Assembly: GCA_032249235.1 (NCBI GenBank)
Contig: JAVVGF010000004.1
Location: 43,525-107,524, forward strand
Source of the DNA: Thermoproteota archaeon
GTDB lineage: Archaea; Thermoproteota; Thermoprotei; Gearchaeales; Gearchaeaceae
Length of the DNA: 64,000 nucleotides
Direction: 5' to 3'
In this document: positions 7,623 to 37,744 of the stretch, piece after piece
Layout: every line of letters begins with the position of its first letter
How positions within the stretch are numbered: the stretch's first letter is position 1
Position numbers and translations under genes: made by a program
The notes under the pieces: generated by a model
Databases searched by the model: none
Told to the model about the DNA's origin: nothing
The model's input: only the letters and a program-made list of their open reading frames with translations

Positions 7623-8918
7623 ATGGCGGAGAAAAAACCACATTTGAATTTGATAGTGGCAGGACATGTAGATCATGGAAAATCAACTACTACAGGCCAC
7701 ATACTAACTCTTTTAGGTGTAGTGGATAAAAAGAGACTTGCAGAATTAGAAGAAGAAGCGAAGAAAAGAGGAAAAGAATTCGCGAAATATGCTTGGATCT
7801 TAGATACATATAAAGAAGAAAGGGAAAGAGATATGACGATAGATCTTACTTTCTTGAAATTCGAAACCAAAAAATATTTCTTCACAATAATCGATGCTCC
7901 AGGTCATAGAGATTTCGTTAAAAACATGGTAACAGGTGCTTCGCAAGCTGATGCTGCATTATTAGTCGTTTCAGCAAAGAAGGGAGAATTTGAAGCTGGA
8001 ATAGGAGCAACAGGACAAACAAGGGAACACGCTTTCTTATTGAGGACAATGGGAGTAAATCAAATAATCGTAGCTATTAATAAAATGGACGATCCTTCAG
8101 TGAATTGGAGCAAAGAAAGATTTGAAGAAGTAAGGAAAGGCATTCTTGATCTTTTAAGACAAGTAGGTTATCCAGTTGAAAAAATTAGAGTAATTCCAAT
8201 TTCAGCATGGTATGGTGATAATTTAGTAGAAAGAAGTAGCAATACTCCATGGTATAATGGACCTACTTTGGCTGAAGCATTCGATGAATTAGTTGTTCCT
8301 CCTAGACCTGTAGATAAACCTTTAAGGATACCTGTTGAAGCTGTATATTCAATAACTGGAGTAGGAACTGTTCCTGTCGGAAAAGTAGAAACAGGCAGAC
8401 TAAGAGTAGGAGATGTTGTTGTAGTCATGCCCAGTGGTAAGAAAGGCGAAGTTAGATCTATAGAGACCCATCATACACCAATACAAGAAGCCATTCCTGG
8501 AGATAATATAGGTTTCAACGTTAAAGGTCTAGAAAAAACAGATGTAAAAAGAGGAGATGTTTTCGGCCCTGTCGATAATCCTCCTACAGTTGCTAGTGCA
8601 GTTATCGCTAGAATATTCGTAATCTATCATCCTACATCAATAGCAGTAGGCTATACTCCTGTTATGCATATTCACACAGCTACAGGGCCTGTTAAATTTG
8701 AAGAAATTCAAAAGAAATTAGATCCAAGAACAGGCTCAACTATAGAGGAGAATCCTAAGTTCATTAAACAAGGAGATGCTGCAATAGTTAAATTAAGACC
8801 AATAAAGCCTATGATAATCGAAAAATATTCAGATTTTCCAGGTCTTGGTAGATTTGCTATTAGAGATATGGGTAGGACTATTGCTGCAGGAGTTGTTCTA
8901 GACGTAATTAAAGCATAA
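7623..8918 (+). CDS. tuf: Elongation factor 1-alpha
   Basis: GHVDHGKST, DAPGHRDF, NKMD, GRFAIRDMG. Confidence 0.99.
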   Translation: MAEKKPHLNLIVAGHVDHGKSTTTGHILTLLGVVDKKRLAELEEEAKKRGKEFAKYAWILDTYKEERERDMTIDLTFLKFETKKYFFTIIDAPGHRDFVKNMVTGASQADAALLVVSAKKGEFEAGIGATGQTREHAFLLRTMGVNQIIVAINKMDDPSVNWSKERFEEVRKGILDLLRQVGYPVEKIRVIPISAWYGDNLVERSSNTPWYNGPTLAEAFDELVVPPRPVDKPLRIPVEAVYSITGVGTVPVGKVETGRLRVGDVVVVMPSGKKGEVRSIETHHTPIQEAIPGDNIGFNVKGLEKTDVKRGDVFGPVDNPPTVASAVIARIFVIYHPTSIAVGYTPVMHIHTATGPVKFEEIQKKLDPRTGSTIEENPKFIKQGDAAIVKLRPIKPMIIEKYSDFPGLGRFAIRDMGRTIAAGVVLDVIKA

Positions 8919-9226
8919 TGCCAAGAGTAGCGCGGATATATCTCTCTGCAACAAACATTAGCGATCTAGAAAGTGTCGTCAATGAAATAAAAACAATTGC
9001 TGATTCACAAAATGCAAGATTAGCAGGTCCTGTTCCATTGCCTACAAAAAGATTAAGAGTTGTAACCAGGAAAACTCCTTGCGGCGATGGAACGCATACT
9101 TTTGATAGATGGGAACTAAGAATACATAAAAGAATAATAGATGTCATTGCTTCAGAAAACGTGATGAGACAGTTAGCAAGAATAAAAGTACCACCATCCG
9201 TTAGGATTTCTATCAACATTAGATAA
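8918..9226 (+). CDS. rps10: 30S ribosomal protein S10
   Basis: GPVPLPTK, RKTPCGDG, WELRIHKR. Confidence 0.97.
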   Translation: MPRVARIYLSATNISDLESVVNEIKTIADSQNARLAGPVPLPTKRLRVVTRKTPCGDGTHTFDRWELRIHKRIIDVIASENVMRQLARIKVPPSVRISINIR

Positions 9227-9270
9227 AACTTAATTATACCTTCTTTTCTTATAGTAATTAGCCGGGAAAA

Positions 9271-9366
9271 GCCGGGATACGAAAGCCCGAAAGCCTAGCG
9301 GACAAGGCGCAGGCCTTGAGAGCCTGTGGGCGTAAGCCCGCGTGGGTTCGAATCCCACTCCCGGCG
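9271..9366 (+). tRNA. tRNA-Ser(UGA) with a 13-nt non-canonical intron (9279-9291, position 8/9)
   Basis: GCCGGGA/TCCCGGC acceptor stem; CAGGC-CTTGAGA-GCCTG anticodon arm; long variable arm; TTCGAAT T-loop. Removing 9279-9291 gives GCCGGGATAGCCTAGC, identical to the 5' ends of the two other Ser tRNAs in the window. Confidence 0.9.
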
Positions 9367-9460
9367 TTTTTAAATCTGTTTATTTTCTTTGTTTTATGAT
9401 AAAAGAATTTTTACATATGTTTTTAAACCTTGAATGAATTTTTTTATTTTTCTTTGAATT
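9367..9460 (+). terminator. Oligo-T rich tract after tRNA-Ser(UGA), probable terminator
   Basis: Several T5-T8 runs directly downstream of the tRNA. Confidence 0.45.
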
Positions 9461-9509: not shown

Positions 9510-9893
9510 ATGGGGGCTAGGGAACGATTAGAACAGATTTACTCTTTGGAACTTGGAAGACATATAATTGCAGATGTAATAGTAAGCAATAGTAGCAAAC
9601 TTAAGGATGTTGAATACTTGAGGAAAATTTTATATGAAGCAGCAGAAAAGGCTAATTTAAAAGTCATAAGCGATAATTTTACAACCTTTGAGAATACTGG
9701 AGGTATCTCACTTCTCTTATTCATAGCTGAATCACATTTATCAATACATACATGGCCTGAATATTCTTTCGCGGCTATAGACATATTTACATGCGGAAAA
9801 GATGCCAATCCTATAGCAGCTTATGAACATATTATAAAGGAACTAGGCGTTGTAAAAGCTTCAAAGAAGGAAATAAAGAGAAAATTACCCTAA
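9510..9893 (+). CDS. speH: Pyruvoyl-dependent S-adenosylmethionine decarboxylase family proenzyme (AdoMetDC or crenarchaeal ArgDC paralog)
   Basis: AESHLSIHTWPE self-cleavage motif; DIFTCG. Confidence 0.88.
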   Translation: MGARERLEQIYSLELGRHIIADVIVSNSSKLKDVEYLRKILYEAAEKANLKVISDNFTTFENTGGISLLLFIAESHLSIHTWPEYSFAAIDIFTCGKDANPIAAYEHIIKELGVVKASKKEIKRKLP

Positions 9894-9928: not shown

Positions 9929-10036
9929 ATGGGAGGAAGACAAAGGACTTCTTTATTTTTAGAGAAAGGTAAGCAAGAACAAAAACCTCAAGAAACAAAG
10001 CAAGAAAAGAAGCAAGAAGCTAAGAAATCTAAATGA
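9929..10036 (+). CDS. 35-aa Lys/Gln/Glu-rich small protein (MGGRQRTSLFLEKGKQEQKPQETKQEKKQEAKKSK)
   Basis: Translated by hand; fills the intergenic gap; ATGA overlap with the next gene. Confidence 0.6.
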   Translation: MGGRQRTSLFLEKGKQEQKPQETKQEKKQEAKKSK

Positions 10037-10830
10037 ATTTTTTTATAATTGCTCCAACAAACATTTTTTCTGATATCCCAAGCTTAAGAGAAAAAACTGT
10101 TAGAGTAGCAAATTTAGTTAGAACATTATTGATCTTTAGAGCAAGAGGTTTAATCCTTTTTAAATATGGAAAAGATGATGAAGAACTATATAGGTTAATC
10201 GAATTCTTCAAAGTCCCATCTTATTTAAGGAAATTCGTTTTCAAAAAAGAAAAAGCCTTAAAATATGTCGGTGTTGCTCCGCCAATTAGAGCATTTTATG
10301 AAGATAGCGATTTCGCTAGATATGGTTTTGTAGTTAAGAGCGAAAATGGAGTAAGTTATGTAAACATTGGTCTAAAAGATCTTGTAAAGATAAACTCAAT
10401 CGAATTGAAAGAAAAATCTCTAGTAAAAGTGGTTCGCGAAAAAGAAAAATGGAGGATTGCAAAAAAAGAAGAAGACTCCCTGTTTGGATTTGAACTCATT
10501 TTCATCGAGGATCTAATTAATTATTTAAATAAAATTAAAAACAAAGAAAATATAATTTTTGCAACATCAAGATATGGAAAAGAATTCTCTTTAGAAGATC
10601 TAAAAAGTTTAAATAATTTAGTAAGGACTAAGAAGAATATTTATTTATTATTTGGTTCTCCGAAGGAAGGATTATATGAGATTTTTAAGAAATTAAATAA
10701 AAATTTAGAAGAATATGCTGATTTTGTTTATAACATGTTTCCTAATCAAGGAGTTAAAACTATAAGAACTGATGAAGCCATATTTGGTTCTCTAGCTATA
10801 TTAAATCTACTCATTCCTAAAAGTATTTAA
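10033..10830 (+). CDS. SPOUT RNA methyltransferase (MTH1/C9orf114-like)
   Basis: PSYLRK, ATSRYG, LFGSPKEGL, PNQGVKTIRTDEAI; conserved position before rpl3. Confidence 0.88.
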   Translation: MNFFIIAPTNIFSDIPSLREKTVRVANLVRTLLIFRARGLILFKYGKDDEELYRLIEFFKVPSYLRKFVFKKEKALKYVGVAPPIRAFYEDSDFARYGFVVKSENGVSYVNIGLKDLVKINSIELKEKSLVKVVREKEKWRIAKKEEDSLFGFELIFIEDLINYLNKIKNKENIIFATSRYGKEFSLEDLKSLNNLVRTKKNIYLLFGSPKEGLYEIFKKLNKNLEEYADFVYNMFPNQGVKTIRTDEAIFGSLAILNLLIPKSI

Positions 10831-26064: not shown

Positions 26065-26148
26065 CGCCGGGAGTGGGATTTGAACCCACGAGGGCAAACG
26101 CCCACAGGCTCTCCAGGCCTGCGCCTTACCTGGCTAGGCTATCCCGGC
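26065..26148 (-). tRNA. tRNA-Ser(GGA)
   Basis: Cloverleaf; CAGGC-CTGGAGA-GCCTG; long variable arm. Confidence 0.97.
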
Positions 26149-35567: not shown

Positions 35568-35884
35568 GCGGCGGTGCCCGCATGTAAACCCATACTAGGA
35601 ATATAGAGCTATATGCACTTCCATTCAAGCCTGTTACCTACGAACGTCGCCACTCTTTATTAGAGCCGCTCCCTTCCGGGCCTAACTCGGTTCTAAAGAT
35701 TAGCCTCTTAACCCTTCCCTCCGGAAGGGCTACGAGGCTATGGCGACCCCGTAGGGCAGGCTTTCATTACTTCCGTGCATATAGCTCTATATTCCTAGTA
35801 TGAGCTTACATGCGTTACTGGCCGTGCCATATCGACCGTTTGCATTTGAGGGAGGCCGAGCCCCTCCGGCCCTACCACCGCCGC
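35568..35884 (-). ncRNA. ffs: Signal recognition particle (7S) RNA
   Basis: Minus strand reads AGGCCCGGAAGGGAGCGGC (helix 8); complementary termini GCGGCGGT/ACCGCCGC; 317 nt, GC-rich. Confidence 0.93.
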
Positions 35885-37660: not shown

Positions 37661-37744
37661 CGCCGGGAGTGGGATTTGAACCCACGAGGGCAAACGCCCA
37701 CAGGCTTAGCAAGCCTGCGCCTTACCTGGCTAGGCTATCCCGGC
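37661..37744 (-). tRNA. tRNA-Ser(GCU)
   Basis: Cloverleaf; CAGGC-TTGCTAA-GCCTG; long variable arm. Confidence 0.97.

Follow-up and report, generated by a model that had tools for sequence, protein, structure and literature searches.

An exact leader copy of the acceptor strand accompanies a predicted intron at position 8/9 of an archaeal tRNA-Ser(UGA) gene

The 64,000-nt stretch of DNA analysed here (the window), from contig JAVVGF010000004.1 of a Thermoproteota archaeon of the order Gearchaeales, carries at 9271–9366 on the forward strand a tRNA-Ser(UGA) gene with 13 extra bases, at 9279–9291, which very probably constitute an intron spliced out from between tRNA positions 8 and 9. Three bases upstream of this gene stands a second copy of the 5' strand of its acceptor stem, an observation new in this analysis, and such a leader copy is a conserved companion of acceptor-proximal introns. 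An earlier note on this DNA had pointed out that the splice motif takes up acceptor nucleotides 3–6 and so competes with the acceptor stem; that is right, and it was this competition that led us to the upstream copy, on which the note had not remarked. We propose that the copy probably acts as a stand-in strand, making an intron tolerable at a place where splice motif and acceptor stem compete, and that splicing is thereby forced to precede 5' maturation.

The interrupted gene and its leader copy

The elements of the gene and its leader are the following.

9223–9237, +: predicted B recognition element (BRE)/TATA-like promoter box, ATAAAACTTAAT followed by TTAATTAT, which shares bases with the stop codon of the upstream ribosomal protein S10 gene
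9261–9267, +: leader copy ("decoy") of the acceptor 5' strand, GCCGGGA, an exact match to 9271–9277
9268–9270, +: spacer AAA, varying among orthologues, with the putative RNase P site after 9270
9271–9278, +: exon 1, tRNA positions 1–8, GCCGGGAT, of which nucleotides 3–6 are the 5' half of the central helix of the bulge-helix-bulge (BHB) motif
9279–9291, +: probable intron of 13 nt, ACGAAAGCCCGAA, delimited against the intron-less Ser genes; its removal restores the cloverleaf
9292–9366, +: exon 2, tRNA positions 9–73, with the D arm, the long variable arm and the T arm
9367–9371, +: T-run, a likely archaeal transcription stop

The window's two intron-less Ser genes, at 26065–26148 (-) and 37661–37744 (-), read GCCGGGATAGCCTAGC, so that the UGA gene holds exactly 13 bases more. 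From 5' to 3' they supply base 3 of the 5' bulge, the stretch C(GAAA)G, the CCCG that makes up the central helix on its 3' side, and bases 1 and 2 of the 3' bulge. After them exon 2 begins with AGCCTAGC (in a longer reading, AGCCTAGCGG) and carries the anticodon UGA at 9317–9319, the 3' acceptor strand TCCCGGC at 9359–9365 and the discriminator G73 at 9366; the CCA end is not encoded in this gene.

In the predicted fold, the outer helix h joins G9271-C9272 to G9293-C9294 (2 bp; positions 1–2 with 10–11), the central helix H joins CGGG at 9273–9276 to CCCG at 9286–9289 (4 bp), and the inner helix h' is the single pair C9280-G9285 closing GAAA. The two bulges, ATA (9277–9279) on the 5' side and AAA (9290–9292) on the 3' side, are both of 3 nt and lie on opposite strands. 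The canonical motif at position 37/38 has its 5' bulge on the inner side and its 3' bulge on the outer side, and the window fold is alike, although with flanking helices of 2 bp and 1 bp it looks more like a relaxed than a strict BHB motif. Cuts after the second base of each bulge would remove 9279–9291 and restore U8-A9, giving the predicted junction GCCGGGAU/AGCC (slashes within sequences mark the splice points), and after removal of the 13 bases in silico ARAGORN draws a Ser(UGA) cloverleaf with a perfect 7-bp acceptor stem. The earlier note had claimed the 13 additional bases, the fold with these pairs and bulges, and the restoration of U8-A9; the count is exact and every pair and bulge is present in the sequence.

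On the window gene alone, the junction could be 8/9 or 9/10, an A standing on either side. We place it at 8/9 because the genes of a sister family within the order (GT/A...AA/G and GT/T...AG/G) give U8-G9, as in intron-less relatives, and because the bulge rule likewise gives 8/9. With its exons colinear within 96 bases, the gene is neither a split nor a permuted tRNA gene.

The genome assembly (1.43 Mb, 18 contigs, 32% G+C, 91% complete) has 45 tRNA genes by ARAGORN, with one each for Ser GGA, GCU, CGA and UGA; two more "Ser" calls made with the intron option read as Leu(UAG) and Phe(GAA) with canonical introns. The earlier note had regarded an intact second Ser(UGA) gene as a mark of a pseudogene, and ARAGORN found none in the 91% complete assembly. 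The codon UCA occurs 16.6 times per 1000 codons in 578 long open reading frames, level with UCU as the most used Ser codon. The genome also has an RNase P RNA (135.7 bits) and two paralogues of the splicing endonuclease EndA (PF01974 matches of 102.9 and 61.8 bits; 183 and 178 aa), with genes on contig C2 around 141127 and contig C5 around 39544. The nearest PDB chains to the 183-aa protein are 3p1z_B, 2cv8_A, 3ajv_B and 2zyz_B, and the 178-aa protein matches the N-terminal half of fused enzymes and beta-subunit models, a combination that points to an enzyme of the two-subunit, (alpha-beta)2 type. According to the available text of one source, two-subunit and epsilon2 EndA are the only types that cut non-canonical introns (PMC5829648).

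Our collection holds 12 genomes of the order, and the interrupted gene was found in 11 of them, each with a single UGA anticodon arm; the twelfth, without the gene, is 67% complete. In a MAFFT alignment the tRNA body is almost invariant across genera while the intron loop drifts. The introns measure 12–24 nt and vary in loop sequence and length, with the same bulge spacing in 11/11 and a closing pair beside the central helix that covaries as C-G, T-A, A-T or G-C (11/11); one sister-family genome has an inner helix of 7 bp. Sister-family genes have G-C as acceptor pair 7:66, and their 5' and 3' bulges are GTA with AAG, GTT with AAG or GTT with AGG. Splicing in silico gave a perfect Ser(UGA) cloverleaf by ARAGORN for all 11 orthologues. 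As the geometry stays constant and the loop changes in both sequence and length, the insertion is more than a chance feature. The reading of the insertion as a BHB intron at 8/9, already put forward in the earlier note, is supported by the sole gene, the heavy use of UCA, this conservation, the covarying closing pair, the two-subunit EndA and the DNA contigs described below.

An exact 7-base copy stands 3–8 bases upstream of the true acceptor strand in all 11 orthologues, and it tracks the A7/G7 difference between the two families of the order. The intervening spacers vary (AAA, TAA, TTA, CTA, AATTA, AAATA, CTCCTA and ACTCCCAG). Since the MAFFT alignment split the leader copy by gaps, pairs were counted on regex-parsed segments instead. 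Over all loci found, including those of the second type described in the next section, we collected 30 distinct intron-bearing Ser(UGA) precursors; all 30 have the copy, with 7/7 pairing to the 3' strand possible in every case, and in 29/30 it matches the true strand exactly, position 7 being A where position 66 is U and G where it is C. The lone divergent copy, in a metagenome contig (L160), has G7 against A7 in the true strand and still forms a G.U pair with U66. GCCGGG was not found within 30 bases upstream in any of 15 intron-less Ser genes that share the acceptor strand. In the window's genome, 44 T-arm candidates with an exact acceptor strand upstream were compared and only one, Ser(UGA), has a true second copy; another apparent double was produced by adjacent Ala and Val genes. 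An origin of the repeat by integration and target-site duplication was rejected, as the copies flank a spacer of 3–8 bases and not the intron.

The gene order at the locus is as follows.

7623–8918: EF-1alpha
8918–9226: ribosomal protein S10, directly before tRNA-Ser(UGA)
9510–9893: S-adenosylmethionine decarboxylase, after the tRNA
10033–10830: putative RNA methyltransferase, after the decarboxylase

The order EF1A-S10-tRNA-Ser is kept in both families of the order (5/5 loci tested). Three sister-family loci outside the order keep the EF1A-S10-Ser(UGA) arrangement with neither the intron nor the copy, so that the two elements come and go together at one locus.

Occurrence in other genomes and other tRNAs

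The search patterns permitted A or G independently at position 7 of both copies. In the sets found with them, the patterns themselves dictate that the copy, central helix and outer helix are present; free to vary are position 7 of both copies, position 66 and the loop pairs. A scan of metagenome contigs returned at least 117 stretches, 80 of them listed; among the matches listed, 70 were chance occurrences in G+C-rich DNA, one belonged to a genus relative and nine represented a second type. The scan of one genome per species gave 29 stretches, 13 by chance and 16 in tRNA context, the latter divided between eight in genomes titled Geoarchaeota, Thermoprotei, Crenarchaeota or Thermoproteota and eight in those titled Bathyarchaeia or Bathyarchaeota. 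When a pattern that leaves out the copy was run against 401 genomes of the phylum, the tRNA genes it hit were confined to the order, in its five sampled members, and every one had the copy; two other hits in that sample were chance matches in coding sequence.

In the second, Bathyarchaeia type, the Ser(UGA) gene encodes its CCA and is interrupted three times, at 8/9, in the D loop and at 37/38. The same leader copy precedes it across a spacer of 6 bases, and the 8/9 intron measures 23–25 nt. This type contributes 19 of the 30 distinct precursors and lies beside EF1A-S10 in 0 of 12 loci. Two genomes labelled Bathyarchaeia, G410 and G411 (the L179 and L181 genomes; about 2.1–2.2 Mb), have only 23 and 18 Rfam tRNA matches. 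Many of these matches are long or partial and several lack an acceptor stem, so that most tRNA genes there are heavily interrupted; the Ser(UGA) genes have three introns.

Eight tRNA loci from these two genomes were examined. Two are tRNA-Cys(GCA) genes, with the acceptor strand GCCGGGG and an exact leader copy set off by a 5-base spacer; their intron follows U8 and has an inner helix of 8 bp. Two others are tRNA-Arg(CCG) genes with the acceptor strand GGGCGGG and an exact leader copy separated by a 3-base spacer; their intron can be read as a canonical motif at 9/10, in which nucleotides 4–7 pair with CCCG, the bulges are TAT or TAC, and ATG, and the inner helix pairs AGAAA with TTTCT in one genome, AGAG with CTCT in the other. 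Of 201 genomes sampled from that class, 5 contain the Arg-type pattern, at 6 loci in total. Three of the eight loci (Ser-GCU in each of the two genomes, and one more) are interrupted in the D loop or D arm and have no upstream copy; no leader copy accompanies the D-loop or T-loop introns of L200, L204, L205 and L215. At a further locus (L201, G410:C3:155056-155431, -), the acceptor strand GCGGCCG is directly abutted by GCGGCC; the sequence is self-complementary and may be a copy or chance.

In G013, a class relative of Thermoproteales type with a complete genome, 3 of 46 Rfam tRNA matches start at model position 4. These are the genes for Glu(CUC), Glu(UUC) and Asp(GUC), which we read as having introns at 3/4, with a central helix of GGAG or GGGG with CTCC and bulges of CCG or CCA, and AAC. 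Each has an exact copy, GCCCCGG, 10–11 bases upstream of G1 and about 19 bases after a TATA-like box. A tRNA-Tyr gene of the same genome (L249, G013:C1:379152-379466, -; C1-G72) has an exact acceptor copy, CGGCCCG, 29 bases upstream, and its spacer holds the complement CGGGCC, so that the leader can form an acceptor-like hairpin of its own.

Predicted folding, transcription and role of the copy

Precursors were folded with ViennaRNA (RNAfold) at 37 °C and at 60–75 °C. With the copy present, the minimum free energy (MFE) structure pairs the copy with the 3' acceptor strand (in the window gene, 9261–9267 with 9359–9365) and nucleotides 3–6 of the true strand with CCCG. Among the 11 orthologues at 37 °C, the probability of the copy on the 3' strand is 0.35–0.99, and the central helix reaches at least 0.86 in 9/11 and 0.35 in one other. 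When copy and spacer are left out, the central helix at 37 °C falls to at most 0.008 in 6/11 and to 0.15 in one; at 75 °C it is at most 0.12 in 11/11 without copy and spacer and 0.05–0.89 with the copy. In the Bathyarchaeia type the central helix does not exceed 0.21 without the copy in any of the 19 sequences and rises to 0.80–0.99 with it, and the copies of the three G013 genes occupy the 3' strand with a predicted probability of 0.81–0.98. In these models the copy raises the odds of the splice fold without being sufficient for it, and the enzyme would have to capture the fold.

The copy would also have to lie within the transcript. A promoter motif was learned from the upstream sequences of 42 tRNA genes of the genome; its best site for Ser(UGA), the predicted box at 9223–9237, scores 8.2, and its end lies 26 nt upstream of the leader copy and 36 nt upstream of the true 5' end. 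As the distance from motif to mature 5' end is 20–32 nt in 14 of 21 high-scoring tRNA sites, the copy stands where a mature 5' end normally sits, and its inclusion in the transcript seems likely from this spacing; read-through from the S10 gene would also take it in. By eye, the box is kept in the genus orthologues and takes another form in the sister family, 20–24 nt before the copy.

From these predictions we propose the following course of events. Transcription would start at or just before 9261, or read through from the S10 gene, and in the precursor the copy would pair with the 3' acceptor strand (9359–9365), leaving the true strand (9271–9277) free. Nucleotides 3–6 of the true strand could then pair with the intron CCCG and form the BHB motif with its two 3-nt bulges. 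A two-subunit EndA would cut after U8 (9278) and after 9291, and a ligase would join U8 to A9. Finally the true strand would take over the 3' strand and RNase P would remove the 10-nt leader, that is, copy and spacer; both takeover and RNase P step are assumed to rest on tertiary contacts and irreversible cutting.

A number of results weigh against this role of the copy. The window's own central helix is weak even with the copy (0.20 at 37 °C, 0.05 at 60–75 °C), and in 4/11 orthologues, which have an extendable hairpin, it reaches 0.77–0.97 at 37 °C without it. After splicing in silico the leader copy is still favoured on the 3' strand (0.30–0.99, against at most 0.05 for the true strand), and the RNase P step therefore needs the assumed refolding. 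In the Bathyarchaeia type, pairing is possible between the base that opens the intron and the one just ahead of CCCG (19/19), and the MFE structure extends the helix and closes the 5' bulge; in this model the 5' site is relaxed, not canonical. An extra exact copy within 100 bases upstream is also present for 3 of the 43 other tRNA matches of G013, two of them beyond the promoter-like box and the third, that of tRNA-Tyr, in the leader of a gene without an acceptor-proximal intron; four of the 43 could not be scored by exact match owing to G.U pairs or mismatches. Several of the counts above (central helix, outer helix, copy presence) are a consequence of the search patterns themselves. The covariation is thin, the single position 7:66 having changed once, plus the one G.U variant, and the genomes are kin and the three G013 genes paralogues, which leaves few independent events. 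The promoter motif is noisy in a genome of 32% G+C, with the other 7 of the 21 sites lying 0–11 or 44 nt from the gene and probably spurious. The sole RNA run, the metatranscriptome X9 in the form of contigs, covers part of the region and shows no spliced joint, which is uninformative either way.

Some of these points would suit an intron that is spliced alongside a copy with no part in RNA folding, either the leftover of a tandem duplication kept by gene conversion or a DNA element near the transcription start. Gene conversion would also produce the identity of copy and true strand seen in 29/30 precursors, the only variation being at one position; the four orthologues mentioned form the central helix at 37 °C even when the copy is left out; and the X9 contigs, the only RNA data, do not show the copy to be transcribed. 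We nevertheless consider this unlikely, given that across two classes the spacers vary freely in sequence and length and the 7 bases do not, that the sole difference, in L160, keeps pairing as G.U, that only intron-bearing genes have the copy, which is missing from all 15 intron-less Ser genes and also where the same locus carries no intron, and that the unrelated acceptor strands GGGCGGG and GCCCCGG carry copies of their own.

It is more doubtful still that the upstream copy itself is the exon sequence, either as a 5' exon whose CGGG pairs with CCCG so that a larger intron is removed, or as the mature acceptor strand with the second copy excised later. The repeat does make removal of copy and spacer, or of spacer and second copy, yield the same mature sequence, the base after the upstream copy is T in 3/11 members of the order, where a cut would also give U8, and the spliced model leaves the upstream copy on the 3' strand. 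That base is, however, A or C in 8/11 and in all Bathyarchaeia-type sequences, so that position 8 would not be U, whereas the second copy is always followed by T; nor was any inner helix or second BHB evident by eye for a cut at the upstream copy.

Retention of the insertion, in a decaying pseudogene or in a tRNA that works with an extra hairpin between acceptor and D arms, appears highly improbable. The X9 contigs show no spliced RNA and, at 91% completeness, a second gene copy could be unassembled; against this stand the one UGA arm per genome in 11/12 genomes, always in the interrupted gene, the heavy use of UCA, and an invariant body with exact bulge spacing beside a drifting intron loop. 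An added hairpin at 8/9 would push U8 and A9 out of their places in the tRNA core. An assembly artefact around the short repeat, raised in the earlier note, is barely credible: the region does hold a direct repeat of 7–8 bases and one RNA-library contig ends at 9270, but DNA contigs of runs X6 and X8 match the window over 9161–9329 with 0 differences (X10, 1 difference), which speaks against an assembly error in the layout, and ten other genomes share it.

With the copy as a stand-in strand as the preferred reading, it is possible, though short of probable, that such leader strands are a general device of archaeal pre-tRNAs: BHB introns that borrow acceptor bases (at 3/4, 8/9 or 9/10) may need a copy and splicing ahead of RNase P, and tandem duplication of the 5' end may let such introns settle, a rule that the order, Bathyarchaeia and the Thermoproteales-type G013 would share. 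If true, this would explain how an intron can exist where splice motif and acceptor stem need the same bases, impose a fixed processing order with splicing before 5' end cutting, and give archaeal tRNA maturation, alongside introns and the paired leaders of split genes, a third class of helper sequence. In practice, a second acceptor strand ahead of a weak tRNA hit could flag hidden 5'-proximal introns.

Relation to known systems, annotation and other observations

In bacterial leader terminator/antiterminator switches, two partners compete for one strand and the pairing decides the next event, a situation resembling that of the leader copy. In the present case no ligand or regulation is implied, and splicing would drive the exchange, which RNase P would make irreversible.

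Non-canonical BHB introns of Crenarchaeota and Thermoproteales are alike in being short BHB-flanked introns away from 37/38 and in the two-subunit EndA. The available text of one source names positions 20/21, 22/23, 25/26, 29/30, 30/31, 45/46, 53/54, 56/57, 59/60 and 3/4, the last as an extreme case (PMC4090602), and the 8/9 site at the acceptor/D connector lies outside that list. The present gene further differs in that its central helix consists of acceptor nucleotides 3–6 and in its leader copy, which the three G013 3/4 genes also have. In the split and permuted tRNA genes of Nanoarchaeum, Caldivirga and Thermofilum, discarded flanking sequence likewise serves only the structure for the endonuclease, as far as the accessible parts of the sources describe them (PMC3218864, PMC4090602). 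There, leader and trailer pair together and form the BHB itself, whereas the leader element here is identical, not complementary, to the exon strand and is proposed to occupy its partner. Nested tRNA introns, which according to the portion of the source at hand are removed in order (PMC8450103), are similar in that alternative precursor folds set the processing order; in that system the order is between two introns, and here it would be between splicing and removal of the 5' leader, set by a duplicated strand. The literature searched, as partial texts, held no statement on an 8/9 intron or an acceptor-strand leader copy; primary intron catalogues were outside the search and "8/9" is unsearchable as a string, and an earlier description of either could exist.

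Both ARAGORN and the Rfam tRNA model set the 5' end of the unspliced gene at 9285, 14 bases too far downstream, and its Rfam score is 41.7 bits (threshold 29), against 62.2–67.9 for the other five tRNAs of the window. The ARAGORN model that starts at 9285 was rejected, having two mismatched acceptor pairs (C-C and A-C) whereas 9271–9277 pairs 7/7. Unspliced, all 11 orthologues of the order were mis-called by ARAGORN, seven as Ser with a shifted 5' end and three as His, with one missed. Annotation pipelines that do not search for BHB motifs would mis-annotate the gene as 9285–9366. The program tRNAscan-SE 2.0, according to the text available of its description, extends candidates by 60 nt to catch introns near the ends (PMC8450103).

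One contig of the X9 RNA library covers 9161–9270, that is, the end of the S10 gene, and stops inside the repeat. Its end fits read-through transcription or a break of the assembly graph at the repeat, and DNA carry-over is possible. An apparent skip in X9 from 9192 to 9286 was false and came from a contig of a related organism.

In the window's genome just one member of the usual archaeal tRNA set, tRNA-Arg(CCG), was found by neither ARAGORN nor Rfam; it may lie in the 9% that the assembly lacks, or an unusual interruption may conceal it. The window itself holds three Ser tRNA genes within 29 kb, together with one Val and two Arg tRNA genes, and an archaeal signal recognition particle RNA at 35569–35883 (-; 166.5 bits).

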